Shown here in pieces: positions 4,438-40,810 of a DNA stretch of 64,000 nt; positions within the stretch are counted from its first letter, which is position 1; each line of letters opens with the position of its first letter. The notes under the pieces are model-generated. The model was not told the DNA's origin and made no database searches. It saw only the letters and a list, made by a program, of their open reading frames with translations. Origin of the DNA: a virus (taxonomy: Duplodnaviria; Heunggongvirae; Uroviricota; Caudoviricetes); IMG/VR virus record IMGVR_UViG_3300044618_002782, positions 1 to 64,000 of that record; one strand, given 5' to 3'. The position numbers were made by a program, and so were the translations under genes.

Positions 4438-4492
4438 AGTTCAAGTCAGTACAAACACTGATATACACATTTTACATCGAAAGGAGTATTAC

Positions 4493-13347: not shown

Positions 13348-13351
13348 GAGT

Positions 13352-14028: not shown

Positions 14029-14058
14029 GTATTATACTGAAAACACGGAGTTATATAA

Positions 14059-17286: not shown

Positions 17287-17610
17287 ATGGCTCGTATCAA
17301 GCAGTTTCCTACCTACGCCGTTGTTAACAATGAGACTCAGTGGCAACTTGTAGACGACAAACCAGTTAAGATATCTACCGTTATTGTACACGAATTTTCC
17401 ATAGGCGATGTAGAGGATCCTGATATCTATGCTGCTGACCCATTACTGGCGTGGCAGCACAGCGAAGCTGGTATGTGGGTTATGGAACACAGTGTAGAGC
17501 TGCCGCAATGGCATCGTCGAGTTGATCAGTACACGTATGGATATCGGTACTGTATTGCAGCAAGATTAACAGAACAAAACGAATTATTTTTTAAGTTGAA
17601 ATTCCAATGA
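17287..17610 (+). CDS. hypothetical protein (107 aa)
   Basis: Intact ORF; ATGA overlap with the epimerase gene. Confidence 0.4.
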   Translation: MARIKQFPTYAVVNNETQWQLVDDKPVKISTVIVHEFSIGDVEDPDIYAADPLLAWQHSEAGMWVMEHSVELPQWHRRVDQYTYGYRYCIAARLTEQNELFFKLKFQ

Positions 17611-18575
17611 AAATACTAGTAACAGGCGGTCTGGGTCTTATCGGTCACAATGTAGTTCAACGATTAGAATCACAAGGACACCATGTTGTTATTGTTGATG
17701 TTTGTACCAACTACGATCTTATTCCCTGGGACGAAATTGACTATTTGTTTGCTGAACGTCAAAAGAAAATCGCCACCAATCAGATTTATCGCACGGACAT
17801 TGTGTCTGAGGCCATGAACAATATAATAGAACAAAATCAAATTGACACTGTTGTTCACTTGGCCAGTTTTCCGCGACAAAAAGTTGTAAATGTAAATCCA
17901 CAATTGGGCAGTCAGACCATGAGCGAAGGCCTGTTAAATTTGTTGGAACTGTCTGTCCGTCATCAAGTAAAGAAGTTTGTTTATATCAGTAGCAGCATGG
18001 TCTACGGCGACTTTGCAGATCAAGTACGCGAAGATGCTGTGTGCCGCCCACAAGGGCAATACGGTATCTTAAAGTTAGCAGGCGAATGGCTGGTAAAAGA
18101 CTACACTAGAAAATCAGGCATAGCACATGTGATCATTCGTCCCAGTGCTGTGTACGGACCCTTAGATGTGAACGATCGTGTAATCAGCAAGTTCTTGCTG
18201 GCTGCCATGCGTGGTGAAACTCTCAACGTCAACGGAGCAAACGAAACCTTAGACTTTACCTATGTCGACGATGCTGCTGACGGCATTGCGGCTGCTGTCA
18301 CGTTAGACGTTGCTAACAATCGGACCTACAACATTACCAAGAGCCATAGCAAGACATTACTGGAAGCTGCTGAACTGGCAGTTCGTATTGCCAAGCGTGG
18401 CTCTATCAATGTGAGAGGGCGTGACTTGGATTTTCCCAGCCGCGGCGCATTGAATATCGATGCTGCTCGACGAGACCTAGGATACAATCCTCAAGTGGAT
18501 ATGGAAGAAGGGTTTGAGATTTATCATCGGTGGCTCCAAGAATCCCCTTACTGGCAGCAGCAGCTCAAGGCATGA
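17607..18575 (+). CDS. NAD(P)-dependent sugar epimerase/dehydratase (extended SDR)
   Basis: N-terminal Rossmann motif MKILVTGGLGLIGHNV. Catalytic S...YxxxK (YISSSMVYGD; YGILKLAGE). Confidence 0.7.
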   Translation: MKILVTGGLGLIGHNVVQRLESQGHHVVIVDVCTNYDLIPWDEIDYLFAERQKKIATNQIYRTDIVSEAMNNIIEQNQIDTVVHLASFPRQKVVNVNPQLGSQTMSEGLLNLLELSVRHQVKKFVYISSSMVYGDFADQVREDAVCRPQGQYGILKLAGEWLVKDYTRKSGIAHVIIRPSAVYGPLDVNDRVISKFLLAAMRGETLNVNGANETLDFTYVDDAADGIAAAVTLDVANNRTYNITKSHSKTLLEAAELAVRIAKRGSINVRGRDLDFPSRGALNIDAARRDLGYNPQVDMEEGFEIYHRWLQESPYWQQQLKA

Positions 18576-19660
18576 TATCATTCAACGGCCTTGATCGTCA
18601 ATATCAATCTTTAAAAAACGAAATTGACCCTGTAGCATCTCAGGTGTATGCTTCGGGGCAATTGATGAATGGTCGCTATACCGAGCAGTTCGAAACTTGG
18701 CTTGCAAGATATAACAATAGCCGTTATGCAATAACTGTGCATTCGGGTACTCATGCACTTGAGGCCATTGCTGAATTTCACCGACGAAACTTTCCTTATA
18801 CACCAACAGTATTGATCCCGTCCTTGACTTATCGAGCCACTGCCAATGCGTTCAAACGTGCAGGGTGGCATATACGATTTGTCGACACTGACCGATACGG
18901 CTTGTTGAATTTTGATAGTTTACCAGAAAAGATTGATTATGAGGCTGTGGTTATTGTGGGCTTGTACGGTGCCAGTGTGGCACACATGGGCAATCAACGA
19001 CAATGGCAAGACTGGTTATACAGAGATACACTGATAATTGAAGACGGTGCTCAACATTGGTTAGCTGACAGTGGTACTCGAGTTGGTACTGCTACTGCTA
19101 TCAGCTTTGATCCCACAAAGAATTTACCTTGCTACGGCAATGGCGGAGCTGTTGTCACAAGAGACAGTGCGTTGGCAGAATTTGTACGCAATTGGCGCGG
19201 CAATTCAATGACTGGTGGCACCACTGTTGGTACCAACAGTAGGATGAGTGAATTGGACTGTGCATTAATGATGGTCAAAGCCAATCACATTCACCAATGG
19301 CAAAATCGACGACGAGACATTGCTGCTTATTACAACGAACAATTTACAGGTACCGCAGTTAAGACTCTCATCACCGATGACATGATGTACAGCCATTGCT
19401 TTCACAAATTTGTCATCGAAGTTGACAATCAGCACCAGCTGCAACAAGATCTTGCTGCTCGCGGCATAGAAACAAAAATACATTATGTACGACCTTTGCA
19501 CGAAGAACCAATTTACAGTTGTTATCCTGGGCCTAATTCGTTGCTGAGTTGTTCTAGTACATTGAGTCGCAGAGTATTGAGCTTGCCTATCTACCCTGAA
19601 TTAACTGATAGCGAAGTAAAACACATTGCTGCTCAAGTCAAACGATGTACTGCTGATTAA
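18572..19660 (+). CDS. DegT/DnrJ/EryC1/StrS-family PLP-dependent sugar aminotransferase
   Basis: SFDPTKNLPCYGNGGAV fits the family SFHxxKxxxxGEGG PLP-lysine motif. LIPSLTYRATANAF matches the TATANAV-like block. N-terminal DRQY. Start at ATG 18572 (ATGA overlap) rather than the track's 18530. Confidence 0.7.
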   Translation: MISFNGLDRQYQSLKNEIDPVASQVYASGQLMNGRYTEQFETWLARYNNSRYAITVHSGTHALEAIAEFHRRNFPYTPTVLIPSLTYRATANAFKRAGWHIRFVDTDRYGLLNFDSLPEKIDYEAVVIVGLYGASVAHMGNQRQWQDWLYRDTLIIEDGAQHWLADSGTRVGTATAISFDPTKNLPCYGNGGAVVTRDSALAEFVRNWRGNSMTGGTTVGTNSRMSELDCALMMVKANHIHQWQNRRRDIAAYYNEQFTGTAVKTLITDDMMYSHCFHKFVIEVDNQHQLQQDLAARGIETKIHYVRPLHEEPIYSCYPGPNSLLSCSSTLSRRVLSLPIYPELTDSEVKHIAAQVKRCTAD

Positions 19661-21818
19661 AATAATCTCTTAGCCAAGCCCATTCAAACGTCAGCAACAA
19701 GCTGTCATAATTTCCCAACACTGAATCATAGTATTCTACAGCATCTTTGGCACCACGCAAGCTCCATTCGGCATGGTCGCCTTGCGCACGTTTCTGCCAT
19801 GTAGTTAGTCTGTATTCTGTTTCCACATCAGGTATGGTTTCGTAGTAGTATTGCAGTTTTACAACTTCTCTAAATGCAGTACGCCATGTGCTCCAAGGAT
19901 CTGTATTAAAGTGTGCTGTTCCGCTTAGTACGGGTTCTACACCGTGTGGCTGACTTAGTGTAAAGTCTAGACCGCGTATTTCGTCGGTCCCTAGCACTAA
20001 CTTCTTGTTGTACGCAATCAAGCCTTGATGTCCATACTCTAATCCATTTACTGGATTTCTACTATTAAAGATGTAGTGCTTGGTCTGTTGCATACGATCT
20101 GGTTGCCAACCAAAATCAAATGCAGGATCAATTTCTAGTTTGGCAAACACAGAAAAGAACCAAGGTGTTTCGCTGGCGTCGGCTGCTGCTTTGTATGCTG
20201 CGCCTCGTCCGTTGATGCCGTCGACTCTAATACAACGATTGCTCCGTCCTGCTGTAATAGTCTGCAAGTGTTGCCAATTGGCATCAGCATTGGGCTCGCT
20301 GTTGCTGAGAAAAACAATGTCTAACAGCCGATCAGATTGAAATTGTTTTGTCTTATCAATATAGGAATAATCGTATAACTGTGTTTTGATATACGGTATT
20401 GCAGCACGTGGTACAACAACAGACGAAGCTCCGGCACTAAGTGGGACAATGGTTTTTGTTTCTGCACGCCACATGGGCACAGTCGGTACATGATCAACTA
20501 TTCCGTCAACTGAAAATACTGCCAGTGGTCCAGACCATTCTGCTGTGGATACTGTCCCCACATGAGAGTCTTGGAAGTGTTGTATTACAGGTATTGCACG
20601 GCGCGGAACTGATTGATTCTTGACAAAATTTAAATCATACCAATCTAACAACTTACACTGTTCGCTACGATAAGCAAAAGTCGGGGCATGCATAAAAAAT
20701 GTGTCGCCGAATTTTTCTTCGTTGCTGGGGAATACATGTAGCATGCCTGCCTGCCACTGTTCTGGATGCCAGCTAAAATCAAAGTCGGTATAATCGCAGA
20801 TGCTGCTGCATATCCAAACAAATTCATGTTCGTACTGAACATTTTTTGCTATTCTTTTAAGAGTATCTAAGTAGTTGTCAAAATACCTGACAACTTTTGT
20901 AGTGCCAGGAATTTGTCCAGCATTACCATCCAAGAAATCTATTTCAAATACCGCAGACGCCACACGGTTTGTTTTAATTTTAATTTGATCTATGTACTTG
21001 ATGTCAGATGCCCCGGGTGCTTGATACCGAGGTCCACCTGTTTTTTGATGCTGCGTTCCAAACTGATAGATAAATTTTCCGTCAGTGTCATCAGGATGCC
21101 ATGTATAATCAAACCCGTCAAACTGGCCGTTAGGTATTTTCCAATGTTCATCGACTGTGGTTTTTAATAATCTGGGTTCGGCGCAATACTTGATGTCAGA
21201 TGCCCCGGGTACTTGATACTGAGGTCCACCTGTTTTTTGATGCTGCGTTCCGAACTGATATATGTAAGCTTGGTCCAGCAGGTCTGGGTGCCAGGAATAA
21301 TCAAAACTTAAATCAAGCACAGACCAATTGTTAGCAGTTGGCAATGCAATTGCACGTGGCGATTCTATAATTTTTATATTGTCACTGCCATTGACAAAAA
21401 CAGGGCCGCCTGTTCTTTGCCACTGTGTGCCGAAATAATACGTCACAGGCGGATCAGCAGGATCCGGGTGCCAAGAAAAATCAAATGAGCTATCTATATT
21501 TTCAGGAATATACCAGTTGTCGCAATTTGATAAACGTTTAATAAACCTATCAGCATGATATTGTGTTTCGCAGTAATCCATTTTAGGAACTAAGTATGTC
21601 CCGGAATCTTTTTGATGCTGGCTAGGCCAAGTATGGCGTTGATTGGCTTGCCATGGCACTGGTTCCCAAAGCCAATCCCAGTCTGTGTAGTCCGATAAGT
21701 AATTGACAACCCAACAGTATCGAGTGCGACTCAATTGCTGGGCATGTTCGATACTATCTGCTGCACGTTCATGCGCAAACAAGCCTGGTTTTTTACCGAT
21801 ATAGAATACATCAAACAT
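19638..21818 (-). CDS. large repeat protein with 5-6 copies of an FD(F/Y)(S/T)WHPD...Y.FGTQ(H/W)Q(K/R)TGGP module
   Basis: Repeats FDFSWHPDPADPPVTYYFGTQWQRTGGP, FDYSWHPDLLDQAYIYQFGTQHQKTGGPQYQVPGASDIKY, FDYTWHPDDTDGKFIYQFGTQHQKTGGPRYQAPGASDIKY, FDFSWHPEQWQ..., FDFGWQPDRMQ.... Function unknown. Confidence 0.5.
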   Translation of the reverse strand: MFDVFYIGKKPGLFAHERAADSIEHAQQLSRTRYCWVVNYLSDYTDWDWLWEPVPWQANQRHTWPSQHQKDSGTYLVPKMDYCETQYHADRFIKRLSNCDNWYIPENIDSSFDFSWHPDPADPPVTYYFGTQWQRTGGPVFVNGSDNIKIIESPRAIALPTANNWSVLDLSFDYSWHPDLLDQAYIYQFGTQHQKTGGPQYQVPGASDIKYCAEPRLLKTTVDEHWKIPNGQFDGFDYTWHPDDTDGKFIYQFGTQHQKTGGPRYQAPGASDIKYIDQIKIKTNRVASAVFEIDFLDGNAGQIPGTTKVVRYFDNYLDTLKRIAKNVQYEHEFVWICSSICDYTDFDFSWHPEQWQAGMLHVFPSNEEKFGDTFFMHAPTFAYRSEQCKLLDWYDLNFVKNQSVPRRAIPVIQHFQDSHVGTVSTAEWSGPLAVFSVDGIVDHVPTVPMWRAETKTIVPLSAGASSVVVPRAAIPYIKTQLYDYSYIDKTKQFQSDRLLDIVFLSNSEPNADANWQHLQTITAGRSNRCIRVDGINGRGAAYKAAADASETPWFFSVFAKLEIDPAFDFGWQPDRMQQTKHYIFNSRNPVNGLEYGHQGLIAYNKKLVLGTDEIRGLDFTLSQPHGVEPVLSGTAHFNTDPWSTWRTAFREVVKLQYYYETIPDVETEYRLTTWQKRAQGDHAEWSLRGAKDAVEYYDSVLGNYDSLLLTFEWAWLRDYFNQQYIV
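20995..21260. repeat. two ~74-bp near-identical direct repeats (20995-21068 and 21187-21260, ~95% identity, period 192 bp) inside gene 19638..21818
   Basis: TACTTGATGTCAGATGCCCCGGGT(G/A)CTTGATAC(C/T)GAGGTCCACCTGTTTTTTGATGCTGCGTTCC(A/G)AACTGATA, read directly. Encodes the duplicated YQFGTQHQKTGGP..GASDIKY protein repeats. Confidence 0.7.
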
Positions 21819-22908
21819 GATTAGAATCGACGAGATTTATAATAATACCTTTTGGCCCTGGATTGACCGAAATAAGATAGGAACAAGAATGTTCTTTTGT
21901 GATCCACCTGGGCGCAGTGACCCCGATAGTCTATTTAACTTGGGCAGAGATGATGTTGTAGAAAATGACTATGTATTTTTTCATGATCAAGAGCCAGTTC
22001 ATTTAGATCTGCACAAATCCTTGTTTGATGATGTGATTCAGCGCAATAAGGATATTTGGACTAAACCACAAGGACATGTAATAGTCAGTGAACAAGGAGA
22101 ACATGTTAAAAAGTTATGCGATCAGTATGGCTGGAAGGCGCACTACTATTTTTATCACGGTTGGGCCTGTCAAGATTGGTTTCGCGGATACGACAAAACC
22201 TTCCTAATACCACGTGCTCGAGACCGTGCGCCCAGCCGTGCTTTTATGAGCCCAAACAGAATAGTTGCTGGCAAACGAGATCATAGAGTTTTGTTTTTGT
22301 ACAATGTGTTTAAGAATAAGTTGGATCATAATTGGATTTCGGCTCCGAGAACCTGTAGTTACGAAAATGTGGACATAAGTGTGATTGCTAACAAGTATAA
22401 TAACACGTATCCAGACATAACGCAAGTGTTTGATTCAGCAGAGTTACCTAAGTTGTTTCCGGGTGAAGCAACACAACAAATGACGTCGTGTTGGCTTACT
22501 AACTTTGACGAAGCTGCTGACAGTTTAGTATATGTACCGACTGAGACTGTTTATTTTGGAAAAAGATTGCACATTACCGAAAAGACATTTAAAGCCATTG
22601 CACTGGAAATGCCGTTTGTATTGATGGCACCAGCCGGCAGCTTAGAATACATGCGCAGCTACGGCTTCCGTACTTTTGCAGATGTGTTTGACGAAAGCTA
22701 TGATTTAGAAACTGACGACATACGCAGAGTCGAGCGTGTTGTAAGTTTACTCAAGAATTTTGATACTCTATCCGTTACAGAACGTCAACAGATACATCGT
22801 GCCTGTTTGTCTGCAGTAGAGCATAACTATGCTCACTTTTACAACGGTGGGTTAACAGACGTGCTATGGAAAGAATTAACCGGAATGCTACATGGACTGC
22901 GTGTTTAA
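21817..22908 (+). CDS. glycosyltransferase-like protein, paralog family member 1 (TEK...P.V..GP...L...GF.TF...DESYD C-terminal block)
   Basis: C-terminal ITEKTFKAIALEMPFVLMAPAGSLEYMRSYGFRTFADVFDESYD resembles the (I/V)TEK(L/F)W...VPVVLGP block of GT10-type fucosyltransferases. Same block in three other ORFs. Confidence 0.4.
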   Translation: MIRIDEIYNNTFWPWIDRNKIGTRMFFCDPPGRSDPDSLFNLGRDDVVENDYVFFHDQEPVHLDLHKSLFDDVIQRNKDIWTKPQGHVIVSEQGEHVKKLCDQYGWKAHYYFYHGWACQDWFRGYDKTFLIPRARDRAPSRAFMSPNRIVAGKRDHRVLFLYNVFKNKLDHNWISAPRTCSYENVDISVIANKYNNTYPDITQVFDSAELPKLFPGEATQQMTSCWLTNFDEAADSLVYVPTETVYFGKRLHITEKTFKAIALEMPFVLMAPAGSLEYMRSYGFRTFADVFDESYDLETDDIRRVERVVSLLKNFDTLSVTERQQIHRACLSAVEHNYAHFYNGGLTDVLWKELTGMLHGLRV

Positions 22909-24082
22909 TTTTGTAGCTGATCGAATTATAAGAGACAAGGCTTATCCAGCTCTTGCTCGGCATCAAGCAACTCCATACACACCCGGGTGGCGAGAATTTG
23001 TACAGCATTGGCCAAATACTGTTCCGGTAGAACTGCACGAACACTGCCAACAGCATCAATATCCCATGCAACTACACAAAGTTGATTCTGGGTGGCCACC
23101 AGGATCTTATTACACTGTAGGGTTAGGATTTTTTGACTTTGCTGTTGATTATTTTTCTTTGATGCCGTTATCAGTATTAGGTGCATTGCGTCAGCAAACT
23201 CTGCAGGTGTTATTTTACTATCACGAAGGCGATAATCCTCACCATATTAAACAACGATTAGATACATTGTGTACGCAACACAATATTCCTTACAATTGTT
23301 ACTGTGTAATCAGTGGGAATTCAGCAGCTGATTCTGTGCCTGGGTTCGTTTATTTTCCAGACCACGAACTGTTATACTGGCAGCGAAATCAAGACGTGTT
23401 GTCGTTGCCTATTCACTGTGAATCAAGAGATTATAATTTTACAGTACTGTCCAGAACACACAAATGGTGGCGGGCTACTGTAATGACTGATTTACTGCGC
23501 AACAACCTATTGAAAAAATCTTACTGGAGCTACAGCACAGAACATTCTGTGGTAGAATCAATTGATAATAACCCTATAGAGATTGATACTTTAAATGTTC
23601 GAAAAGATATAATTCAATTTTTGGCAGGTACACCATATCGCTGTGATAAATTGACATCAGATCAACATAACGATCATCATATGATCCAAGCTGATCATTA
23701 TCTCAACTCCTACTGCAGTATAATATTGGAAACACATTTTGATGCTGATGGATCCAATGGTGCCTTTTTGACCGAAAAAACATTCCGAGCAATAAAACAT
23801 GGGCATCCATTTGTAATTGTAGGTTGCCCCGGTAGTCTTGCTGTGTTGAGAAATTTAGGATATCGCACATTTGATCATGCCATTGATAACTCATACGACA
23901 CTGTTATAAACAATACTCAAAGATGGATACAATGTCGTAACACAATCCTACAGATTCAGCAGCAAGACATGCACAATTGGTTTGAATCTTGTCGCAGCGA
24001 TATCGAACATAATCAACAATTATTTTTAGCTAGTAAATATGAACGCTTAAATAACTTACTTAAAAGACTCCGACACATATGA
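22892..24082 (+). CDS. glycosyltransferase-like protein, paralog family member 2
   Basis: LTEKTFRAIKHGHPFVIVGCPGSLAVLRNLGYRTFDHAIDNSYD, the same C-terminal block as 21817..22908. Confidence 0.4.
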   Translation: MDCVFNFVADRIIRDKAYPALARHQATPYTPGWREFVQHWPNTVPVELHEHCQQHQYPMQLHKVDSGWPPGSYYTVGLGFFDFAVDYFSLMPLSVLGALRQQTLQVLFYYHEGDNPHHIKQRLDTLCTQHNIPYNCYCVISGNSAADSVPGFVYFPDHELLYWQRNQDVLSLPIHCESRDYNFTVLSRTHKWWRATVMTDLLRNNLLKKSYWSYSTEHSVVESIDNNPIEIDTLNVRKDIIQFLAGTPYRCDKLTSDQHNDHHMIQADHYLNSYCSIILETHFDADGSNGAFLTEKTFRAIKHGHPFVIVGCPGSLAVLRNLGYRTFDHAIDNSYDTVINNTQRWIQCRNTILQIQQQDMHNWFESCRSDIEHNQQLFLASKYERLNNLLKRLRHI

Positions 24083-25098
24083 TTAATTCTTACACCAGCT
24101 GGCAACCACTTGAAGAAGTCATTGTGGGTCGTGCTTACAGTCCCGATTACTTTGATTTCATTGACAATGCACAAGTTCGTAATCAACTGCAGCAGATTCT
24201 GTCAGAGACCGAAGAAGACCTCAATAACTTACAAAAAACTATTGAACAATACGGTTCAATAGTAGTGCGCCCGGATCTACCATCCAAGGATCAATTTGTT
24301 TGGTTTCAAACTGAAGGTGGCGGAGCACCGTTGCCACCACTAACTCCAAGAGATTGGCAAATCACATTAGGTAACAAGTTATTGCGTGTGTTGGCCATGC
24401 CAGAGTTAGATAATATATGTGCTCGATATCCAGGACAAGTAATCAATCCACATAAAGGTGCATGGGACGCGGATTGTATACTCAACGGAGCCAGTGCCAG
24501 CTGTATTGTACGAGTTGGACAAGATGTCTTCTTTGACAACAGTGATTTCTTAAGACCAGATCAAACTCAATGGATTGTGGACAATGTACTGACACCCGAA
24601 TATCGTATTCACGAAGCTGTTACTGACGGACACGGTGATGCTGTATTTGCAATTCTCAAGCCGGGCGTTATTCTTTCTAGCAAGCATGATTTTAATTTGA
24701 ACTTAGCAGAAGATTTTCCAGGATGGGATGTGTGTAAGATTTGGGATAGCAGTATATGGGCAGCAATGGAAGTAGGCAAATTTAAATATGAACAAAGTCC
24801 TGGAGCATGGTATGTGCAGGGACAAACTCCCACTGCTGAATTTACAGACTTTGTCAATACATATCTTAGCAAATGGACAGGATTTGTAGCTGAAACAGTT
24901 TTTGATGTCAACTGCCTGGTTCTCGACGAGAATCATGTAATCTTTAGTGCTTACAACAAAGAAGTGTTTGATTTTTGCCGCAAGCATAAGATCGAACCTA
25001 TCATTAGCGAACTGCGTCATAGTTATTTTTGGGACGGTGGCATCAGTTGCTGTACACAAGATATCCGCCGGCGTGGTGGATTGGAAACTTATCTATGA
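24079..25098 (+). CDS. amidinotransferase (glycine/scyllo-inosamine-phosphate amidinotransferase family)
   Basis: N-terminal SWQPLEEVIVGRA (family NEWDPLEEVIVG). VVRPD, PEYRIHEA, HGDAVFAILKPGVILS (family H.D..F..IGPG.VL). C-terminal catalytic-Cys block GGISCCTQDIRRRGGLETYL (family GGGFHCWTCDVRRRG..). Confidence 0.8.
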   Translation: MINSYTSWQPLEEVIVGRAYSPDYFDFIDNAQVRNQLQQILSETEEDLNNLQKTIEQYGSIVVRPDLPSKDQFVWFQTEGGGAPLPPLTPRDWQITLGNKLLRVLAMPELDNICARYPGQVINPHKGAWDADCILNGASASCIVRVGQDVFFDNSDFLRPDQTQWIVDNVLTPEYRIHEAVTDGHGDAVFAILKPGVILSSKHDFNLNLAEDFPGWDVCKIWDSSIWAAMEVGKFKYEQSPGAWYVQGQTPTAEFTDFVNTYLSKWTGFVAETVFDVNCLVLDENHVIFSAYNKEVFDFCRKHKIEPIISELRHSYFWDGGISCCTQDIRRRGGLETYL

Positions 25099-25769
25099 AA
25101 ATATTATTCAACGGCGATAGCAATATGAGCGGAGAAGAGCTAACCGATTATTCACTAGGTATAGCCAGTCACCTGGAAAAATTATTAGGAGCAACTGGAA
25201 CAACAAATCTTTCTCTTTGTGGTAGTAGCAATGACAGAATCTATGATACTACAATGGAGTATATCAGGCAAAATCGAGATGTTGATTTAGTAATAATCGG
25301 CTGGAGTGAATTTTGTCGAGTACAATGGTTTCTTACTGACCAGGGTTACCCAGAATTCTGGGAAATCAATAATTTGGGTGTAGGGAGGCAGCCGCCAGAG
25401 GAATATAAATTACGCAAAGAGAATTGGGAACGCACCTCAAGAAACAACGACTATCGAACAGGAATGTCTCATTACTGGCATGAACGAATTTATAATGTAC
25501 ACAAGTACTTTGAATTTCATAATATACCGCATTTGTTTTTTCACGCCTTCCATGATTTTAGAATAAACGAAACACAATATCAACTAGATTGGAATAAACA
25601 ATATTTTCATCCGTATAACAGTACACAAACCTACATACACTGGTGTCACGACAATGGATTCAAAGAGATTACACCAGGCTGGTATCACTATGAACCAGAT
25701 GCTCAGGAAGCCTGGGCAAATTATATCTTTAATTATATAATTGACAATAATTTATTATCAAAAAAATGA
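25095..25769 (+). CDS. SGNH-like hydrolase-fold protein (candidate esterase/acyltransferase)
   Basis: MKILFNGDSNMSGE has a GDS(N) block I at the N-terminus. Start at ATG 25095 (ATGA overlap); the track start at 25029 overlaps the upstream gene. Confidence 0.4.
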   Translation: MKILFNGDSNMSGEELTDYSLGIASHLEKLLGATGTTNLSLCGSSNDRIYDTTMEYIRQNRDVDLVIIGWSEFCRVQWFLTDQGYPEFWEINNLGVGRQPPEEYKLRKENWERTSRNNDYRTGMSHYWHERIYNVHKYFEFHNIPHLFFHAFHDFRINETQYQLDWNKQYFHPYNSTQTYIHWCHDNGFKEITPGWYHYEPDAQEAWANYIFNYIIDNNLLSKK

Positions 25770-25852: not shown

Positions 25853-26647
25853 TTACTTAGTGCCAAACCCCGGCTCAGGCCAACGACTAGCATTAAAGTT
25901 TACACGTTCAAAATCTGACAGGTCTAGTTTTATAGTACCAGGCTTGTAATTTTGCACTTCATTAACTATGTATTTCCCTAGCACCACGTTATTGTGTGGA
26001 CTCATGTGATTTGCTCTCATATCGTTAGTTATGTCGGCCACTTCTGAATCAGTACCGGTAACTTCTCCGAGAGAAATATGAATCAACGGTGTAGCAACTA
26101 TCATTCCGTCGAGTCCTGCTGCGATTTCAATATTGAATGGAAGGGTGAACAAGTGTATTTTTTTAAAGTCGCTGCATTTAAATTTACGATTAATTTCTTC
26201 AAACCATTGCATTTGTGCCCAAATCTGAAAGGAGTCGTCTCTTAGATAATTTATCCAATCTTTTAATGCAGAGGAAAGTTGTTGAGTTTCGAAGTCAAAA
26301 AGTTTTGGATCGCTGTAAATTAAATTCATTCCAATTTCAGACTTGCAGGAGTTAAATCTCCAGTAATCAGTATGTACAAATACCATAACTTCAATTCGTT
26401 CAACAAAGTCCGGATTTTTTTGAATATGCCGAAACAACCGATCTCGACTAAACCACCAGCTACGCCCAGCATATCCAAAACTGTAAAGATTAAGATTCAA
26501 TTCTTTTGCTGCAACATTGAGCCAGGTTGGGTGACCATGTTGTTGTTGATTCGACTCATGCCGGTTCGGACTTGGGCCTCTAAATGAACTGCAATAGCTG
26601 TCGCCAACGAAAACAATGTTTTTTTTCATTTTATTGATTGATACCAT
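25853..26647 (-). CDS. SGNH-like hydrolase-fold protein (candidate), convergent with 25095..25769
   Basis: KKNIVFVGDSYCSS shows a GDS block after a short N-terminus. Overlaps the rSAM gene 26626..28044 by 22 nt (coupled). Confidence 0.35.
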   Translation of the reverse strand: MVSINKMKKNIVFVGDSYCSSFRGPSPNRHESNQQQHGHPTWLNVAAKELNLNLYSFGYAGRSWWFSRDRLFRHIQKNPDFVERIEVMVFVHTDYWRFNSCKSEIGMNLIYSDPKLFDFETQQLSSALKDWINYLRDDSFQIWAQMQWFEEINRKFKCSDFKKIHLFTLPFNIEIAAGLDGMIVATPLIHISLGEVTGTDSEVADITNDMRANHMSPHNNVVLGKYIVNEVQNYKPGTIKLDLSDFERVNFNASRWPEPGFGTK

Positions 26648-28044
26648 TCTGCAAGATTAGGAAAAGTATTTATAAAGTTTTTACCTCTACGTTGATCATA
26701 TTGATCAAAAAAACTACGAAAATCTTTTTCCAGTAATTTTGTATCTTGAGCTGGATCTTTTTGATCATATACAGCAGATCCGTGTTGTATTTGTTTTTCT
26801 TGGTGCGGAATTTCTACAGTACTCAAATACTTGGCAAAGCGATCAATGTGATCAATTTCGATAGGCAAAAACCATTTATTTAAATTGTCTATGTTTAAAA
26901 ATTCCTGTATATCTTTGCTGTACTTTTGCCTCATTTCGTTTGGTAATACAACTATGTTCTGAAAGCTGGGAAATCGCACAGGATTCACACTCAACATAAG
27001 ACTGGTTGTTCCGTTGGAATTTGCAGGTGCAGTTTTTTTACGTTCCAATAACCAGTAAAGAAAATCTACAAATCCGTCGGCACTGATGGCACTCAATGTA
27101 CCGCAAATTCCAGTGTTGGCAACTACCCCACTGTTGAGAACCATATCTAGATTGCTATGCCATAGATCCCAATCGATGCCGTCTCTTACATATTCCATTT
27201 TTTGTCCAGTGCTTTCTGCGCTGGTGTACACCCATACAGGCACACTAATTCGACTACACATGTCTAAAAAACGTTTTAACGTATCTTGATCGTAAGCCAG
27301 ATTTGTGGTCATCTCAATTCTGCAATCAGCTTTGCCGGCATTGTCGGCCAGCCAAGACAGCAACTTCCACGTATGCCCAGACATCATTGGTTCGCCGCCT
27401 GATATACGAATCTGTTTTATAGTTTTGTGCAAACTTTCTTCCCACCAACGAAAAAATGCGTCTGCATAAGGATTTTGATCTCCGTAGTTGTATTTGATAA
27501 AACTATCGCCTGTATCAATGTAGTGGTTGCGATGATCTGTTGGCAAATTTAAATAAGGCCCGTTTTTTCTAATATCCTTGGCCCAGGTAGTGCTGATAGT
27601 AGGTGCACAATAACTACAAGCCAGATTACAGGTTCTGTCAAACACTATTTCTAAATAGGTAAGATCATAGTCAACATCCCAGCTTTGAGTAAATGCATTA
27701 TCCAGCTGTTGTTTGCTCATTTGGCCGCCCCAAGAGGTCCATGTTCTGTCGGCAAGGCCATTGGGATCAACTTCTTCCATAACCCAACAAAATTGGCAAT
27801 TTTTTGGTTTTTTTCCTTCCTGCATCATCTTGCGTTCTTGTTTTTTAATCGGAGTGTTGTGCAGGGCCCGAGGATTGGTTTTGATTGCTTCGAGATCTAT
27901 TGCATGCGGAGGGTTATGGTGACAACTAGTAGTCCAGCCTTGACCTAGCCACAGGCTGGCGTTGTACCATTTAGATCCACAAAAACTTGGACTTTTACTG
28001 TCTAAGTTTTCAATCTTCCATTGTTTCATTGCTTTGATATCCAT
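26626..28044 (-). CDS. radical SAM enzyme, paralog family B member 1
   Basis: CNLACSYC (CxxxCxxC) and ISGGEPMMSG (GGE SAM-binding motif). Family-specific N-terminus FCGSKWYNASLWLGQGWTTSCHH...NPRALHNTP...CQFCW. Conserved C-terminus YDQRRGKNFINTFPNLAEWYQSI. Confidence 0.65.
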   Translation of the reverse strand: MDIKAMKQWKIENLDSKSPSFCGSKWYNASLWLGQGWTTSCHHNPPHAIDLEAIKTNPRALHNTPIKKQERKMMQEGKKPKNCQFCWVMEEVDPNGLADRTWTSWGGQMSKQQLDNAFTQSWDVDYDLTYLEIVFDRTCNLACSYCAPTISTTWAKDIRKNGPYLNLPTDHRNHYIDTGDSFIKYNYGDQNPYADAFFRWWEESLHKTIKQIRISGGEPMMSGHTWKLLSWLADNAGKADCRIEMTTNLAYDQDTLKRFLDMCSRISVPVWVYTSAESTGQKMEYVRDGIDWDLWHSNLDMVLNSGVVANTGICGTLSAISADGFVDFLYWLLERKKTAPANSNGTTSLMLSVNPVRFPSFQNIVVLPNEMRQKYSKDIQEFLNIDNLNKWFLPIEIDHIDRFAKYLSTVEIPHQEKQIQHGSAVYDQKDPAQDTKLLEKDFRSFFDQYDQRRGKNFINTFPNLAEWYQSIK

Positions 28045-28176: not shown

Positions 28177-29295
28177 TCATAAATTTTCAAGCTGCAAACT
28201 GTCTAAAAATTTTGTTATCTCAACACTTATATCACAGTCCGACATTTTTTTTGCAAGTTCTCGATTGAACATAAATCTTGGCATCAATGATTCTTTAAGA
28301 TCTTGCAAAGTATTTGATGGGACACGATTGATAAATTTCTCAAGGCTGCTGACAAATTGTTCTATTCGTAACAATGGGTCAGGTTCGTTGTCGTAGCCAT
28401 GATCAATTAATTCGTCAAATAAATCAAAACCTTGCTGTCTTGTTTTTTCAACCTGGCCACGTGGTCCCAATATCATTGGAATCTGACCAAGTACAAATGC
28501 TTTTACTGTTTTTTCAGTGAGCATGGGTACGGTCCAACTCCAGTCTGCGGGCACAGCAGATGAATATTCAAATCCAGACTCTAATACTACATTTACCAAG
28601 GCATTTTTTATTTTGTCATTGGTTATAGTAGATGACTTACAAAAAGATTGTTTGTCAGCAAGTTTTGATTTTAGATCAACAATCCCGTCAACAAAGCAAG
28701 GAAAATATTTTAGATTTTTCTCGTCAATACCTAAGGCTGTATGATTTCTTAAAAAAAATTCATTGCTATTGTCACATTCGGCTGCTGCACCAATGCTAAA
28801 ATATCCCAAATGTTGCAAGTTTCTGTTTAAGATAGAATTAATCACTCGTGTGCGACTGAATCGCGGAATTCTAGCTAAGGCAACAAAATGATGAGTTGCT
28901 TGATAAGAAAATGAGTCTTTCCACTGGTTATGGATATGCCAAAAAAATGTATTACAATCAGTTATTGTGGTATAATCAGCCTGTGGTGATTCCCAACCTG
29001 TTGTTAAATGAAGAATTTTCAACCCAGGATGTAATGATTTTAATGCCGGTAAGAATGAAAAACGATCAATCGTAGGAGATTCGTTGATACTGTGAATAAT
29101 CAGCAGCGGAGGATTCTTTTGAAACTTTGAATACTTTTCAATCAACAGTGCGTCTATCCCCTGAGTGATATTAAAATTGAATTGTGGACGATTAAAATCC
29201 AGTAAAATGCAAGGCAACGGATGCTGATCTATTAGATCAGCATACCTGATGTAGTGCATTTTTGGATCCAAATCAGGAATATAATCTACTATCAT
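28177..29295 (-). CDS. glycosyltransferase-like protein, paralog family member 3
   Basis: LTEKTVKAFVLGQIPMILGPRGQVEKTRQQGFDLFDELIDHGYD, the same C-terminal block as the other members. Confidence 0.4.
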   Translation of the reverse strand: MIVDYIPDLDPKMHYIRYADLIDQHPLPCILLDFNRPQFNFNITQGIDALLIEKYSKFQKNPPLLIIHSINESPTIDRFSFLPALKSLHPGLKILHLTTGWESPQADYTTITDCNTFFWHIHNQWKDSFSYQATHHFVALARIPRFSRTRVINSILNRNLQHLGYFSIGAAAECDNSNEFFLRNHTALGIDEKNLKYFPCFVDGIVDLKSKLADKQSFCKSSTITNDKIKNALVNVVLESGFEYSSAVPADWSWTVPMLTEKTVKAFVLGQIPMILGPRGQVEKTRQQGFDLFDELIDHGYDNEPDPLLRIEQFVSSLEKFINRVPSNTLQDLKESLMPRFMFNRELAKKMSDCDISVEITKFLDSLQLENL

Positions 29296-29296
29296 A

Positions 29297-30787
29297 TTAT
29301 GAACATACCTTTACATTGTATAAAATTTCAAATCTGTCAGCGTCTGCTCGATCATTGACCATGGGTTCGCTTCTGATGTTTAAACTGGTGTTTAGTAGCA
29401 TGGGGCAACCAGTGCGTGCGTACCAGGCTTCTAGCAGTTGTCTGATCCCTGACGCCAAGTCCGGAGCCACTGTTTGAACTCTACTAGTGCCATCCACATG
29501 CACAATAGCAGGATACAACTCAGGAGCCAAGCAGCGGGCGACAGATTGCATATAAGGGCTACTACCGAAACCACGAGGAAGATCAAAGTATTGATCAGCA
29601 TGCTCTTCCAAGATGACAGGGGCAAAGGGTCTAAATTTTTGTCTTCGTTTGATTTCATTTACTCGATCCTTGATATCGGGTCCGCGTGGATCAGCCAATA
29701 AACTTCTATTACCTAGAGCTCGCGGTCCAAATTCGGCAGCGCCGCTGGCCACGCCAACGATACGATCAGTGAGCAGGTGATCAACAACGGCATCGACAGG
29801 ATACTGGCCAGGTATAACATGGCCCAGATAGGGATGCTGCCAGTCAATACGACCACCAAAAGCCAAAGCGGCAGCACCAAGACTACTACCAGCATCACCG
29901 GGACAAGGCATAATCCAAATGTGATCAAAGTATTCTCCCAAGTTTCGATTGGCCAAGCAGTTGAGTGCCACTCCGCCCATGTATACTAAGTTCTTGCTCC
30001 AGTTAAATGCACGAGCACGTTTCATTACATTGTAAATTAATTGTTCTGCCAGTTCCTGCGCGGTGCTGGCAATGTCGTTGTTGTCAGCTGATTCTAACCA
30101 TTTATCATCGATGCCAGCATGCAAATTCTGAGTAAATCTTACTTCGTCCGAATCGGCTACTAAGTCCTGCCGCATGCGATCAATCCAGACAGCACGACCC
30201 CAGCCGGCCATGCCCATGGTAATGTATTCTTCGTCTAGTGGGTGTAGGCCAATGCGGCTAGTAATTCCACTATAAAACAGTCCGATTGAGTGGGGGTATC
30301 GTTGTCCCCACAGCTTTTTATATACTGCACGATTCTTTTGATCATATTCTGCTCCCCAAATACTTATGGTATCCCATTCTCCTATTGCGTCAATAACCAC
30401 AACAGTTGCTCGTGTGTAGGAACTGGTTTGAAATCCAGCAGCAGCATGACTTAGGTGATGATTATAACTGACTGCACGACCAGGACGTTGATGCAGCCAA
30501 GGCGACAATTGGTATTGAATATTTTGATTAAGTGTAATTCGGTTCCAATCAACACCTTGCCCACTGTACAATTGCCGTGACTGTTTTAGCCAGGGTCTTT
30601 CGTACCATGCAATAGTGTCTATGTCATAGTCGCGTATCTCGGCGACTAGGCCGTGGCATATATCTGCGTCATTCTTTCGTTTGCTGTATCGTTCACTGTG
30701 ACCTGCAAACACAATACGGCCGCGATCATCAATTAAGCTGACCGCAGCATCGTGGAAGCCGGCACTGACGCCCAATATATGTTTCAT
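29297..30787 (-). CDS. carbamoyltransferase (NodU/CmcH/TobZ family)
   Basis: N-terminal MKHILGVSAGFHDAAVSLIDD and SYNHHLSHAAAGF match the family hallmark HH.AHAAS. ~500 aa with Kae1-like N-domain plus YrdC-like C-domain. Confidence 0.75.
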   Translation of the reverse strand: MKHILGVSAGFHDAAVSLIDDRGRIVFAGHSERYSKRKNDADICHGLVAEIRDYDIDTIAWYERPWLKQSRQLYSGQGVDWNRITLNQNIQYQLSPWLHQRPGRAVSYNHHLSHAAAGFQTSSYTRATVVVIDAIGEWDTISIWGAEYDQKNRAVYKKLWGQRYPHSIGLFYSGITSRIGLHPLDEEYITMGMAGWGRAVWIDRMRQDLVADSDEVRFTQNLHAGIDDKWLESADNNDIASTAQELAEQLIYNVMKRARAFNWSKNLVYMGGVALNCLANRNLGEYFDHIWIMPCPGDAGSSLGAAALAFGGRIDWQHPYLGHVIPGQYPVDAVVDHLLTDRIVGVASGAAEFGPRALGNRSLLADPRGPDIKDRVNEIKRRQKFRPFAPVILEEHADQYFDLPRGFGSSPYMQSVARCLAPELYPAIVHVDGTSRVQTVAPDLASGIRQLLEAWYARTGCPMLLNTSLNIRSEPMVNDRADADRFEILYNVKVCS

Positions 30788-30871: not shown

Positions 30872-31993
30872 TTAATCCAGCGCATGGTGTTCTCCTTGTT
30901 GGCCCGAATAGTCGTATCCGGGTTTCAGTCGATTGATTTGTTGTTGTTTATAATTGCTGTCAGTCCAACAATAATCAAATGTCTGAGTAACCCCGTTGAC
31001 TTCTATACTGTATATATCTAAGTGCGAACCCAGGATATTCCAAATCTCTTGGGCATCAGTTGTTCCAAAACTCTGTTGCAACAGAACTTGTGCTATGGGC
31101 AAGTACCCTAGGCTCAGATTCGGATCAGTAGGATCCCTATTGTTGTCAACAAGCCAGGCACGAAATCGATCTTGCTCTTGATCATGCCATGGTCTTTGTC
31201 CACCATACACAACGTCATTGCCCCATTCTACATCAAATTCTCCAGAGTAATATCTTAGATGCGTGATAGCTTTGCATACAGTATCTGTCAACACTGGTGC
31301 ACCTTCGTCTCTAAATACTTCAAATAAAGTTTTACCTATCTGTGTCCAGTGCATGTAGACCCCGCCAAGCACACGGTCATATCCATTGGTAACAAATTCT
31401 TGCCGATGCTGGGGCAATAAGTCGTAACGGTCTGCAGACAACCAGGTGGTGATCTGACTGGGTCGAACCCAAAAAGGTGCAGTGGCAGCTTTGCGTTGAC
31501 TCAATATGAGATTTTCCATTTCATGGCAAATATTATTGAGTTGTCGTATAGCATACTTGGTTTCGTAACTGGCACATGTATACCATGAACTGAGATTTTC
31601 TACTGTGCCTTGTAAAACTTCAAAATGATTGTGTAACTTGTTTAACAAGTTATGATTGATTCCGTTTTCAGCATAATCAAAACCCACAACAGTATCGGGT
31701 GTGTATGTTTCTGTAATTTGATAGTCTGTGAACTCAGAGTTTATAACAGCGACGGCCTGGGTTAATTCTCTGCAGAGATAAGGCAGTGTTCTTGCAGTGT
31801 TTGGAAATCCCATAAAACAAAAGTTTTTTTCTAGCAGTTTACCGGATGCTAGTAGTTTAGTTAATGCCACTTTCCAGTCTCTAGCCAAGAGATGATCTTG
31901 TACTTCAATTGTGTAATCAACTAAATCTCGACGAGATAACGGATTTCGTAGTACTACTTTAACTTGGGATTGCATTCCACCACCTTGCCACAT
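30872..31993 (-). CDS. hypothetical protein (373 aa)
   Basis: Intact ORF inside the island with no recognisable motif. Overlaps the downstream end of rSAM-A1 by 35 nt. Confidence 0.4.
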   Translation of the reverse strand: MWQGGGMQSQVKVVLRNPLSRRDLVDYTIEVQDHLLARDWKVALTKLLASGKLLEKNFCFMGFPNTARTLPYLCRELTQAVAVINSEFTDYQITETYTPDTVVGFDYAENGINHNLLNKLHNHFEVLQGTVENLSSWYTCASYETKYAIRQLNNICHEMENLILSQRKAATAPFWVRPSQITTWLSADRYDLLPQHRQEFVTNGYDRVLGGVYMHWTQIGKTLFEVFRDEGAPVLTDTVCKAITHLRYYSGEFDVEWGNDVVYGGQRPWHDQEQDRFRAWLVDNNRDPTDPNLSLGYLPIAQVLLQQSFGTTDAQEIWNILGSHLDIYSIEVNGVTQTFDYCWTDSNYKQQQINRLKPGYDYSGQQGEHHALD

Positions 31994-40003: not shown

Positions 40004-40810
40004 TTAATTTAGCCCCATCTGTTGTCGAATTTCAGTTCCAGATATTTGGGTAATTTCTTTGTCAAATGTTTCCTCACCAGATGTATATCCTACTCCACGC
40101 CCCCATCCAATGTGTACAATATTGGGAACCACTTGTATTTCGTACTGTCCTTGGTACAAGGGATCTAAGTCGTGTCTGATACGCTGTTTAACTTCTTCTA
40201 GACCAAATGGGTTAGAACCTTGCCATCCTTGCACGTCACGTATTTGAATAACGACCTGTCCAGTTTTTGCAAGTAGTCTTTCAAACAGAGCACGATGTCC
40301 CGGATGCCAAGGTTGCCAGCGTCCCAACATCTGCACTGTTTCTTTGCGCCAGTCAAACACTGGACGACGCTGATTAGACAAAATGTGATCAGCAACAAAC
40401 ACTGACCATTTGGCAGCATCTTGTTCGATTATTCTAAAGTCATATACAGTAGGTGGGATAAAGGCCTTGTTGGTATCTTCGTATCGCCCTTGCTCAATTG
40501 TATCCATCCAGACTGTCCAGTCTGCTTTAAAGTTATTGCGCATTTCCACTAACGGAGCAACAAAGTCGCAAATAACATAATCGGCAGCAGACTGTTCTGC
40601 TAATTCTGCCATTCTGAGACTTTGACGAATGCGTCCAGTTTCGGTAAAGTCCCAGTCATTGAATTTCTTGCGTACTTCGTCAGCATTAAACCAATCGACT
40701 GTAATGCCGAATCCTTCGTATTTAATATCCTCAACGTGATTTTTTAATGCTGTTGCTAGTGTAGTTTTTCCTGCGCCAGGAAGTCCCATTATTAATATTT
40801 TTTGTGCCAT
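40004..40810 (-). CDS. fusion protein: APS-kinase-like P-loop domain + compact HxGH nucleotidyltransferase-like domain
   Basis: N-terminal ILIMGLPGAGKTTLATAL. ADEVRKKFNDWDFTETGRIRQSLRMAELAEQSAADYVICDFVAPL parallels CysC GDNVRHGLN.DLGFS..DR.ENIRRVAEVAKL...AG...ISP. C-terminal GRWQPWHPGHRALFE is a Q...P.HxGH motif, cf. cytidylyltransferase-like/ATP-sulfurylase HxxH. Confidence 0.5.
   Translation of the reverse strand: MAQKILIMGLPGAGKTTLATALKNHVEDIKYEGFGITVDWFNADEVRKKFNDWDFTETGRIRQSLRMAELAEQSAADYVICDFVAPLVEMRNNFKADWTVWMDTIEQGRYEDTNKAFIPPTVYDFRIIEQDAAKWSVFVADHILSNQRRPVFDWRKETVQMLGRWQPWHPGHRALFERLLAKTGQVVIQIRDVQGWQGSNPFGLEEVKQRIRHDLDPLYQGQYEIQVVPNIVHIGWGRGVGYTSGEETFDKEITQISGTEIRQQMGLN

Follow-up and report, generated by a model that had tools for sequence, protein, structure and literature searches.

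An unusual phage-encoded amidinotransferase relative in a sugar island, possibly acting on amino sugars

The analysed stretch of DNA, here called the window, comprises 64,000 nucleotides and carries on its plus strand (24079..25098) a gene for a 339-residue protein, which is classed as an amidinotransferase-like enzyme by homology, fold and conserved residues. Sequence comparison confirmed that the protein is a genuine, if unusual, relative of the amidinotransferases and assigns it to a family of its own, a virus-specific sister of AGAT and StrB1 with a distinct motif and insertion. Based on the neighbouring genes, we suggest that an active enzyme of this family would catalyse the arginine-dependent amidination of an amino sugar, and we estimate the probability of this reading at roughly 0.5.

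Homology and predicted fold

A phmmer comparison of the query protein with AGAT gave an E-value of 3.9e-14. When a profile of the family was run against the PDB, SxtG, AGAT, HsvA and StrB1 were matched with E-values from 6e-35 to 4.5e-31, and no family beyond these four solved amidinotransferases was found in this search. Scans of the query against Pfam and NCBIfam returned no amidinotransferase family at E<=1. PF02274, by which the initial annotation was to be checked, was included in these scans, yet the homology became visible through the PDB profile and fold searches. The sole library family matching the query was PHROG 25854 (E=1.1e-12), which covers only the C-terminal 200 residues and carries no functional annotation.

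The AF2 model of the query was confident overall, with the lowest confidence at about residues 221-250. In the fold search, the predicted pentein fold was nearest to the amidinotransferases, ahead of the hydrolases. Hydrolytic penteins (arginine deiminase, DDAH, agmatine deiminase, PAD and AstB) were no closer than the transferases in sequence or in fold. The best match is thus an amidinotransferase and not an arginine deiminase or DDAH, in line with the initial annotation. The helical insertion of AGAT (about 190-250) is missing from the query, which has instead its own insertion of ~40 residues (about 228-270). The gene is under purifying selection, with a dN/dS of about 0.04.

Active-site residues

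Residue conservation was counted in two sets, 61 diverse relatives and 121 members of the query's clade. The query and AGAT share 25% identity, a level at which the alignment of loops is unreliable. The nucleophile Cys324 (AGAT Cys407) was conserved in 61/61 relatives and 121/121 clade members, and the catalytic cysteine had rightly been called intact. His185, the counterpart of the catalytic His303 of AGAT, was conserved in 60/61 and 121/121, respectively. Asp92 aligns with AGAT Asp170 and is D in 60/61 diverse relatives and in 120/121 clade members (one E). Asp187, corresponding to AGAT Asp305, is invariant in all 61 relatives and all 121 clade members. We take Asp170 and Asp305 of AGAT to be the acidic guanidinium-binding residues, and the roles of these aspartates were reportedly described by Humm et al. 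in 1997.

The aspartate of the triad is replaced. Compared with AGAT (PDB 1JDW) and StrB1 (PDB 1BWD), the query has Ser139 in place of AGAT Asp254, and this correspondence was obtained in three independent alignments (phmmer, hmmsearch and hhalign). The column varies among the diverse relatives (S11, D9, N8, E5, P5, A5 and further residues) and is fixed in the query's clade, with S in 120/121. A triad aspartate is common to AGAT, CyrA and AoaA (PMC3684758). In the profile alignment, SxtG differs from the query in that its 'FDAAD' block retains the canonical Asp. Since this residue is missing, catalytic competence is not guaranteed. Of the expected Asp-His-Cys triad, Cys and His were therefore recovered together with both guanidino-binding aspartates, but the triad Asp was not. 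Membership in the GATM/StrB1 family was likewise borne out in part: these enzymes are the nearest relatives by sequence and fold, but with Ser139 in the triad and no PF02274 match the query is not a canonical member.

Beside the nucleophile, the query's clade has Ser323, whereas 54/61 relatives and AGAT have His. Both substitutions, together with the failure of all Pfam and NCBIfam amidinotransferase models, would suit a protein that is not a transferase, either a deiminase-like hydrolase or a catalytically impaired binding protein. We infer transfer and not hydrolysis, and regard a non-transferase as very improbable.

The residues by which AGAT grips the amino-acid end of arginine were not recognisably conserved in the query, so that arginine as the donor is not proven. 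Thr182 and Gly184 stand for AGAT Asn300 and Met302 (read by hand from the alignment of ~25% identity, with unreliable loops). AGAT Arg322 corresponds to about Asp204, and Ser354/355 to Ala271/Glu272, where the alignment was extended by hand and loops are unreliable. Asn300 and Met302 of AGAT have a role in specificity (PMC3684758). Family-specific residues of the query are Glu272, Arg313-His314 and Phe317-Trp318-Asp319. The family motif reads RHRxFWDGGxHC, and Asp319 sits where AGAT has Gly.

Origin of the window and distribution of the family

The window is phage DNA with a jumbo-myovirus-like baseplate gene. The baseplate wedge subunit (61894..63966, minus strand) matched PHROG 10646 with E=2.8e-122 and is about 30% identical to its counterparts in Atu_ph07 and 121Q-type jumbo phages. 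This gene and the IMG/VR contigs uphold the earlier call that the enzyme is phage-encoded. The window also holds a CHASE2 adenylate cyclase and a TctA transporter. A bacterial origin, first suspected from these two genes and the sugar genes, was rejected once virion genes, including the baseplate gene, and IMG/VR contigs had been found. No tRNA was detected in the window, and Pfam revealed no domains in the 4,691-aa ORF. A scan for promoter-like sites (46 vs 34.7 expected) and terminator-like sites (7 vs 9.6 expected) was uninformative.

In contrast to AGAT and StrB1, the family is almost purely viral and is missed by the Pfam and NCBIfam models. Members were found on at least 579 viral contigs, compared with 14 MAG contigs among 185,579 species genomes. 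In IMG/VR, the family comprises at least 579 plus 158 contigs and falls into 677 clusters at 50% identity; the query's clade is represented by 158 contigs of up to 364 kb, including complete genomes on contigs of 320-364 kb, and is frequently encountered in metagenomes from freshwater. Megablast of a 6.3-kb region gave no match among deposited phages, and tblastn against deposited phages found only 4 distant phage records.

Most of the distant members lie in a different, non-sugar cassette, and context arguments are thus not extendable to the whole family. The partners in that cassette are DUF6875, ATE1-like, DUF6614, QueE-like, cytidylyltransferase and IscA proteins. As an explanation for the present locus this cassette was rejected, since HMM searches of the window found none of the six partners.

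Further phage amidinotransferases are ORF266 and ORF309 of Synechococcus phage S-SCSM2R and those of Campylobacter phages CP220, CPt10 and CP20, all annotated by homology alone. Their genes adjoin those for glycosyltransferases, radical SAM proteins and DegT-like proteins (PMC2853527, PMC12801897). In the cultured cyanophage S-SCSM2R, an amidinotransferase gene lies inside a run of five glycosyltransferases together with one radical SAM and one DegT-like gene. The query shares 30% identity with ORF266, and the query's clade has at most 38% identity to any S-SCSM2R or Campylobacter phage amidinotransferase. Unlike the query, ORF309 shows the canonical signatures FDAAN, MHID and FHC and is without the FWD motif.

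Gene order and immediate neighbours

Upstream of the amidinotransferase gene, two GT-B paralogues are encoded on the same strand. The end of paralogue 1 (21817..22908, plus strand, 363 aa) shares 17 nt with the gene that follows. Paralogue 2 (22892..24082, plus strand, 396 aa) contains an F-x-T-E-K donor-type motif, and its stop codon shares a 4-nt ATGA overlap with the amidinotransferase start. A second 4-nt ATGA overlap joins the amidinotransferase stop to the start of the gene at 25095..25769. Gene order was counted in 80 loci of the clade. The order GT-B1, GT-B2, amidinotransferase was kept in 77-78 of these, a carbamoyltransferase was located within 7 kb of the amidinotransferase in 76/80, and DegT in 60/80.

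GT-B paralogue 2 has the two-Rossmann GT-B architecture, and GT10 fucosyltransferases were among its best fold matches. It had no Pfam or PDB sequence match, and tblastn against deposited phages was also empty. Likewise, PDB sequence searches with the 396-, about 224-, 726-, 372- and 373-aa neighbours returned nothing. In the F-x-T-E-K block of the GT-B family, Thr294 and Glu295 are invariant and Phe292 and Lys296 near-invariant. The block was likened by eye, without a structural alignment, to Tyr246/Glu249/Lys250 of H. pylori FucT, the GDP-fucose-binding block Y-x-T-E-K (PMC11468063).

The gene at 25095..25769 (plus strand) belongs to the variable part of the island and encodes a 224-aa, weakly DUF6071-like protein that carries a GDS motif near its N-terminus (MKILFNGDSNMSG). 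It is probably an SGNH-type esterase or acyltransferase. A second GDS-motif protein of 264 aa (25853..26647, minus strand), in which FVGDSYC was read from the sequence, had no database match and is also encoded in the variable part.

The sugar island

Besides a sugar SDR and a DegT aminotransferase, the surrounding island of ~23 kb encodes a carbamoyltransferase, four GT-B proteins and six twitch radical SAM paralogues. The NAD-dependent sugar epimerase/dehydratase (SDR; 17607..18575, plus strand, 322 aa) matched Pfam Epimerase with 7e-43, and its best NCBIfam match was dTDP-glucose 4,6-dehydratase (7e-34, under the curated cut-off). By eye, it is without the 'TDE'-type signature that we take to be expected of a 4,6-dehydratase. 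The DegT/DnrJ/EryC1/StrS sugar aminotransferase (18530..19660, plus strand, 376 aa; Pfam 5.6e-62) was closest in NCBIfam to PseC and other sugar 4-aminotransferases, again under the cut-offs. As both enzymes are below the equivalog cut-offs of NCBIfam, the amino sugar is unspecified. In a related phage locus, the SDR and DegT genes directly flank a second copy of the amidinotransferase gene.

A 726-aa protein without an assigned function (19638..21818, minus strand) is conserved beside the GT-B pair, and its C-terminal part is homologous to the ORF at 41428-42354. The remaining genes are on the minus strand. These are twitch-domain radical SAM paralogue 1 (26626..28044; NF033640, 271 bits), GT-B paralogue 3 (28177..29295, 372 aa; family HMM E=3.8e-18), a NodU/CmcH-type carbamoyltransferase (29297..30787, 496 aa) and a functionally unassigned 373-aa protein that is conserved in the island (30872..31993). 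They are followed by four consecutive twitch radical SAM paralogues (31959-33260, 33238-34455, 34452-36158 and 36155-37483; 284-399 bits), GT-B paralogue 4 (37480..38619, 379 aa), twitch radical SAM paralogue 6 (38603..40003; NF033640) and an APS-kinase-like P-loop kinase (40004..40810; PHROG 10255 'kinase'). All six radical SAM paralogues, at 271-399 bits, exceed the curated NCBIfam cut-off of 170 bits for NF033640.

Among the three products proposed initially, a guanidino sugar fits this gene context best, and neither a modified nucleobase nor a polyamine has support anywhere in the window. A related possibility is hypermodification of the phage DNA, in which a modified base would be glycosylated by the GT-B proteins and the sugar on the DNA would receive a positively charged guanidino group from the amidinotransferase, as a means of anti-restriction; we judge this quite improbable.

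The enzyme might instead make a free small guanidino metabolite (guanidinoacetate, homoarginine or an HsvA-type amidinated polyamine), loosely tied to the sugar genes, and serve as an auxiliary metabolic gene or as the source of a DNA-condensing polycation for a large capsid. Every characterised relative works on small molecules, SxtG (PDB 6U1R, 6e-35) and HsvA (PDB 5WPI, 3e-34) match the profile as strongly as AGAT, and the sugar genes are not adjacent in most of the distant family members. Viral matches usually appear in catalogues under K00613, glycine amidinotransferase (PMC8226683), or are discussed under creatine biosynthesis (PMC11360552). However, the translational coupling to GT-B and the conserved gene order speak against such a metabolite, as do the exchange, read by hand, of the AGAT specificity residues for Thr182/Gly184 and the lack of guanidinoacetate methyltransferase or polyamine genes within the window. 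SxtG and HsvA demonstrate that the same scaffold takes acceptors other than glycine, and their genes lie in small-molecule toxin or virulence clusters, in contrast to the glycosyltransferase operon of the query. We consider a free metabolite rather unlikely.

In the role of StrB1, the enzyme could also contribute to an aminoglycoside-like pseudo-oligosaccharide, secreted or intracellular, with bioactivity. Neither a cyclitol synthase (2-deoxy-scyllo-inosose or myo-inositol-phosphate synthase) nor an exporter or self-resistance gene was recognised in the window, and the four GT10-like GT-B paralogues suit a glycoconjugate better. Such a product is unlikely.

Proposed mechanism

For the amidination of an amino sugar, a mechanism can be drawn by analogy with AGAT and StrB1. 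Asp92 and Asp187 would grip the guanidinium of L-arginine, the presumed donor, and the Cys324 thiolate, assisted by His185, would attack the guanidino carbon. Ornithine would depart, leaving a covalent S-amidino-enzyme, from which an amine acceptor would pick up the amidino group to become a guanidine. Judged by context, an amino sugar produced by the neighbouring SDR and DegT enzymes is the likeliest acceptor, either in nucleotide-activated form or once it is part of a glycan. The translationally coupled, GT10-like GT-B paralogues may then build the guanidino sugar into a decorated oligosaccharide, destined for the virion surface, the host envelope or another site. The six twitch radical SAM enzymes may tailor it further, together with the carbamoyltransferase and the GDS-motif proteins.

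A more far-reaching version is offered tentatively and is less probable. A widespread freshwater jumbo-phage lineage would place guanidinium on the amino sugars of a phage-built glycan, with the catalytic acid moved from the canonical Asp254 position to Asp319 or Glu272. In other phages the family would be coupled to a mini ATE1-like arginyltransferase, as part of a broader, so far undescribed viral chemistry of modification based on arginine.

Implications

Viral matches are at present named 'glycine amidinotransferase' or 'inosamine amidinotransferase' and are then grouped with genes of the creatine pathway, of amino acids or of antibiotics (PMC8226683, PMC11360552, PMC12801897). For members of the viral family these names are probably wrong. 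The enzyme is small and confidently modelled, and is directly testable in vitro. Amidination to a guanidino sugar has so far not been described for any virus. We know of no guanidino sugar in any glycoconjugate. If the proposal is true, this would be the first, and hence new glycan chemistry. It would also be a new kind of decoration made by a virus, on surfaces or nucleic acids, and a new viral route to a permanent positive charge on the virion, DNA or host surface, and would bear on the recognition of hosts, the evasion of immunity or the packaging of DNA.

Identification of the protein and origin of the contig

The open reading frame described in the initial annotation was found at 24079..25098 (+ strand, ATG start, 339 aa). 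The three sequence blocks quoted there are present in the translation, SWQPLEEVIVGRA (residues 7-19), GHGDAVFAILKPGVIL (184-199) and GGISCCTQDIRRRG (320-333), and each matches the corresponding block of human L-arginine:glycine amidinotransferase (AGAT) in the alignment. Amidinotransferases were the only matches when all PDB chains were searched with phmmer (AGAT, E=3.9e-14; SxtG, 4.5e-9; StrB1, 5.7e-9; HsvA, 3.6e-8), and homology and fold place the protein with these enzymes. The Pfam search proposed earlier gave a negative result. Neither Pfam nor NCBIfam returned an amidinotransferase model at E≤1, and PHROG 25854 ('unknown function') was the sole library family that matched.

Several genes in the window have a cellular look (CHASE2 adenylate cyclase, TctA transporter, ThyX, sugar enzymes), and a cellular origin was the first impression. 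This was overturned by virion genes and by the occurrence of the clade on viral contigs. A baseplate wedge gene matches PHROG 10646 (E=2.8e-122), and the nearest deposited relatives of its product are from the jumbo myoviruses Atu_ph07, Phosso and 121Q/PBECO4, at about 30% identity. Other virion-protein matches and a CobS-like ATPase with a VWA partner were also found. Members of the amidinotransferase's clade of close relatives are encoded on 158 IMG/VR viral contigs, the longest of 364 kb, and JGI and ENA metagenome contigs as long as 199 kb carry the identical protein. The gene is therefore phage-encoded, as had been proposed. Among deposited phages no close DNA-level relative was found; the source is a widespread, uncultivated jumbo-phage lineage.

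The CHASE2-domain adenylate/guanylate cyclase (696 aa; 860-2950, +) and the TctA-family tricarboxylate transporter subunit (442 aa; 9486-10814, -) are cell-type signalling and transport genes unusual for a phage, and could point to the host. Near the window start lie genes for a rubrerythrin-like protein (4421-4933, +; Pfam, 3e-25), a GDSL-like lipase fragment (5029-5448, +; 8e-7, below cut-off) and a calcineurin-like metallophosphoesterase (6868-7470, +). The CobS-like AAA ATPase (PHROG 1297, E=5e-100) with its VWA/DUF2201 partner (PHROG 1314), and ThyX, are encoded at 12259-15330 (+) and 16573-17259 (+), just upstream of an island of sugar genes, and this arrangement is kept on JGI contigs L001 and L003. 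Directly upstream of the baseplate wedge gene is a single open reading frame of 4,691 aa (47819-61894, -). It holds no Pfam domain at E≤1e-3 and may encode a giant fibre or virion protein, conceivably a target for the glycosylation island.

Active site

AGAT catalysis relies on Asp254, His303 and Cys407, which are kept in CyrA and AoaA (PMC3684758). The equivalents of AGAT Cys407, His303, Asp305 and Asp170 are Cys324, His185, Asp187 and Asp92, conserved among diverse relatives in 61/61, 60/61, 61/61 and 60/61 sequences, respectively. Within the clade (n=121) no substitution occurs at Cys324, His185 or Asp187, and Asp92 is retained in 120 sequences, with E in the other one. Of the Asp-His-Cys triad that the initial annotation proposed to check, the cysteine and the histidine are intact, but the aspartate is not conserved. 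AGAT 'FDAADF' is aligned with 'ASASCI', which puts Ser139 at the position of Asp254 in three independent alignments (phmmer, hmmsearch, hhalign). Family members differ in this column (S, D, N, E, P, A). Near-invariant family residues that are absent from canonical enzymes include Glu272-Thr273, Asn278, Arg313-His314 and Phe317-Trp318-Asp319, and there is a family-specific insertion of about 40 residues at about 228-270. Asp319 stands at an AGAT Gly position five residues N-terminal of the nucleophile (family consensus RHRxFWDGGxHC). Judged from the alignments, Asp319 or Glu272 may take the role of AGAT Asp254. The canonical-type enzyme ORF309 of the cultured cyanophage S-SCSM2R is the reverse case, with FDAAN and without FWD.

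The residue beside the nucleophilic Cys is Ser323 in the clade versus His in 54/61 relatives, and two residues that govern AGAT specificity, Asn300 and Met302 (PMC3684758), appear to be replaced by Thr182 and Gly184 when the alignment is read by hand. Clade-wide dN is about 0.12 with saturated dS, and dN/dS is about 0.04 where computable; the gene is under purifying selection and functional. The missing Asp254 equivalent would suit a hydrolase or an impaired enzyme, a reading made very unlikely by residue conservation and fold ranking. We consider with good confidence that the protein is an active arginine-type amidino-transferring enzyme.

By homology, arginine would be held by Asp92 and Asp187 and attacked by Cys324 with assistance of His185. 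Ornithine would depart, and the resulting S-amidino enzyme would amidinate an amine.

Gene neighbourhood and predicted product

Four overlapping genes are read in the same direction here (all +), and the amidinotransferase gene is the third. The first (GT-B1, 21817-22908) and second (GT-B2, 22892-24082) encode glycosyltransferase paralogues and overlap by 17 nt. The GT-B2 stop overlaps the amidinotransferase start (ATGA), and the amidinotransferase stop overlaps the start of the fourth gene (25095-25769) in the same way (ATGA). A free guanidino metabolite or an amidinated polyamine would agree with the small-molecule substrates of characterised relatives; since the gene is translationally coupled to glycosyltransferase genes and the window lacks partner genes, we regard such a product as unlikely.

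HMM searches revealed four GT-B paralogues, at 21817, 22892, 28177 and 37480, in the island, which spans about 17.6-40.8 kb. The island further encodes an SDR sugar epimerase/dehydratase, a DegT/StrS-type aminotransferase, a NodU-type carbamoyltransferase, two GDS-motif proteins, one P-loop kinase and six twitch-domain radical SAM paralogues, each above the NF033640 cut-off. This enzyme set recalls aminoglycoside tailoring, yet neither a cyclitol synthase nor an exporter was seen in the window, and an aminoglycoside-like pseudo-oligosaccharide is a rather improbable product. We favour an amino sugar as acceptor, which by context would be made by the SDR and DegT enzymes and be amidinated either while still an NDP-sugar or once the coupled GT-B enzymes have transferred it. 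The product would be a guanidino sugar in a heavily tailored oligosaccharide, with carbamoylation, radical SAM modification and probably acylation or de-acylation as the tailoring steps. The full reading, an active amidino-transferring enzyme with an amino-sugar acceptor, is given a probability of about 0.5. The data show the homology and fold of the enzyme, its conserved residues and the selection on them, the operon, its synteny and the GT-B fold of the neighbour; arginine as donor, a transfer instead of a hydrolysis, the acceptor and the place where the glycan ends up are inferred.

The radical SAM paralogues carry the twitch domain N-terminally (26626-28044, 31959-37483, 38603-40003 (-); NF033640, 271-399 bits), and four lie back to back. 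The upstream glycosyltransferases belong to a large GT-B family, with 2,892 proteins at E≤1e-5 and island members at 21817-24082, 28177-29295 and 37480-38619; no Pfam model, PDB sequence match or homologue in deposited phage genomes was found for it. Its alignment shows Arg194, Glu280, Thr294-Glu295, Gly323, Thr326-Phe327, Asp336 and Asn374 to be invariant.

Conservation of the neighbourhood

Synteny was analyzed at 80 IMG/VR loci of the clade (83-91% identity). GT-B2 is immediately upstream in 77/80 and GT-B1 precedes GT-B2 in 78/80; the segment directly downstream is variable. Within 7 kb we found the carbamoyltransferase in 76/80, a 726-aa protein in 63/80, and DegT and SDR in 60/80 and 51/80, the last two counts being limited by flank length.

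Locus L008 has a second, divergent amidinotransferase copy directly between SDR and DegT genes. A sugar-type neighbourhood (SDR, DegT, GT-B, radical SAM) recurs in a scattered subset of the distant relatives (L053, L062, L077, L018/19/86). S-SCSM2R ORF309 has five glycosyltransferase genes around it, together with one DegT-like and one radical SAM gene. In Campylobacter phages CP220 and CPt10, a putative amidinotransferase has been reported along with radical SAM genes in clusters of five (PMC2853527). Thus the combination of amidinotransferase, sugar aminotransferase, glycosyltransferases and radical SAM is recurrent in large phages.

Two or three family copies, often in tandem and often with ~22-30% mutual identity, were seen in 13/80 viral loci with distant relatives (L008, 5027-6046 and 9947-11020; also L013, L014, L042, L052, L056, L062, L076, L077 and L085), which suggests repeated duplication and divergence of specificity. 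Several marine T4-like contigs (L013, L014, L036, L050, L057, L059, L078, L085) encode a QueE-like radical SAM protein within 1 kb of the homologue, and an RNase H/FEN gene usually comes next. The closest deposited homologue, S-SCSM2R ORF266 (PQ898602.1, L007:9001-9894; 30% identity), adjoins KdsA/KdsB and 2OG-Fe(II) oxygenase genes. Its product is listed in the virion proteome (PMC12801897), which would fit a virion-associated or highly expressed enzyme.

At 25-30 of the 80 loci with distant relatives, the enzyme is held in another tight co-directional cassette, in the order DUF6875-like (about 164 aa), 143-aa mini-GNAT, amidinotransferase and DUF6614 (110 aa). Examples from IMG/VR are L047:8721-11068, L054:9070-11143, L072:9062-11137 and L017:8824-10777. 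The window contains none of the enzyme's partners from this cassette. The mini-GNAT family profile matches the catalytic core of the eukaryotic arginyl-tRNA-protein transferase ATE1 (PDB 7wfx, 7tif, 8e3s; E=3.4e-5 to 1e-3). The cassette is thus linked to arginine twice, which suggests a viral modification chemistry not yet described. We know of no description of an arginyltransferase-like protein beside an arginine-type amidinotransferase in phages.

Distribution and placement of the family

By motif-guided scanning of IMG/VR, family relatives were found on 579 viral contigs at least. When one genome from each of 185,579 bacterial and archaeal species was scanned in this manner, 14 loci emerged, every one of them on a MAG contig, so that the family is essentially viral. 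Members are named by homology only in JGI, UniProt and GenBank, for example 'glycine amidinotransferase' or 'inosamine-phosphate amidinotransferase 1'. Viral amidinotransferase genes have been listed as K00613 auxiliary metabolic genes (PMC8226683), placed in a creatine biosynthesis context (PMC11360552) and termed 'antibiotic synthesis genes' (PMC12801897). No biochemical work on such viral enzymes was found in the literature.

The protein is predicted to act in the manner of AGAT and StrB1. Because the triad Asp is absent and curated models miss it, it is better not classed among the canonical members. It represents a separate, virus-specific sister family with altered active-site make-up, and in this jumbo-phage lineage its gene is part of a conserved operon with glycosyltransferases. 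Phage 'amidinotransferases' are already on record through automatic annotation, which lowers the surprise. New are the viral specificity of the family, its divergent catalytic apparatus, the sugar context, and the finding that such viral genes are probably mis-annotated as creatine or glycine metabolism.
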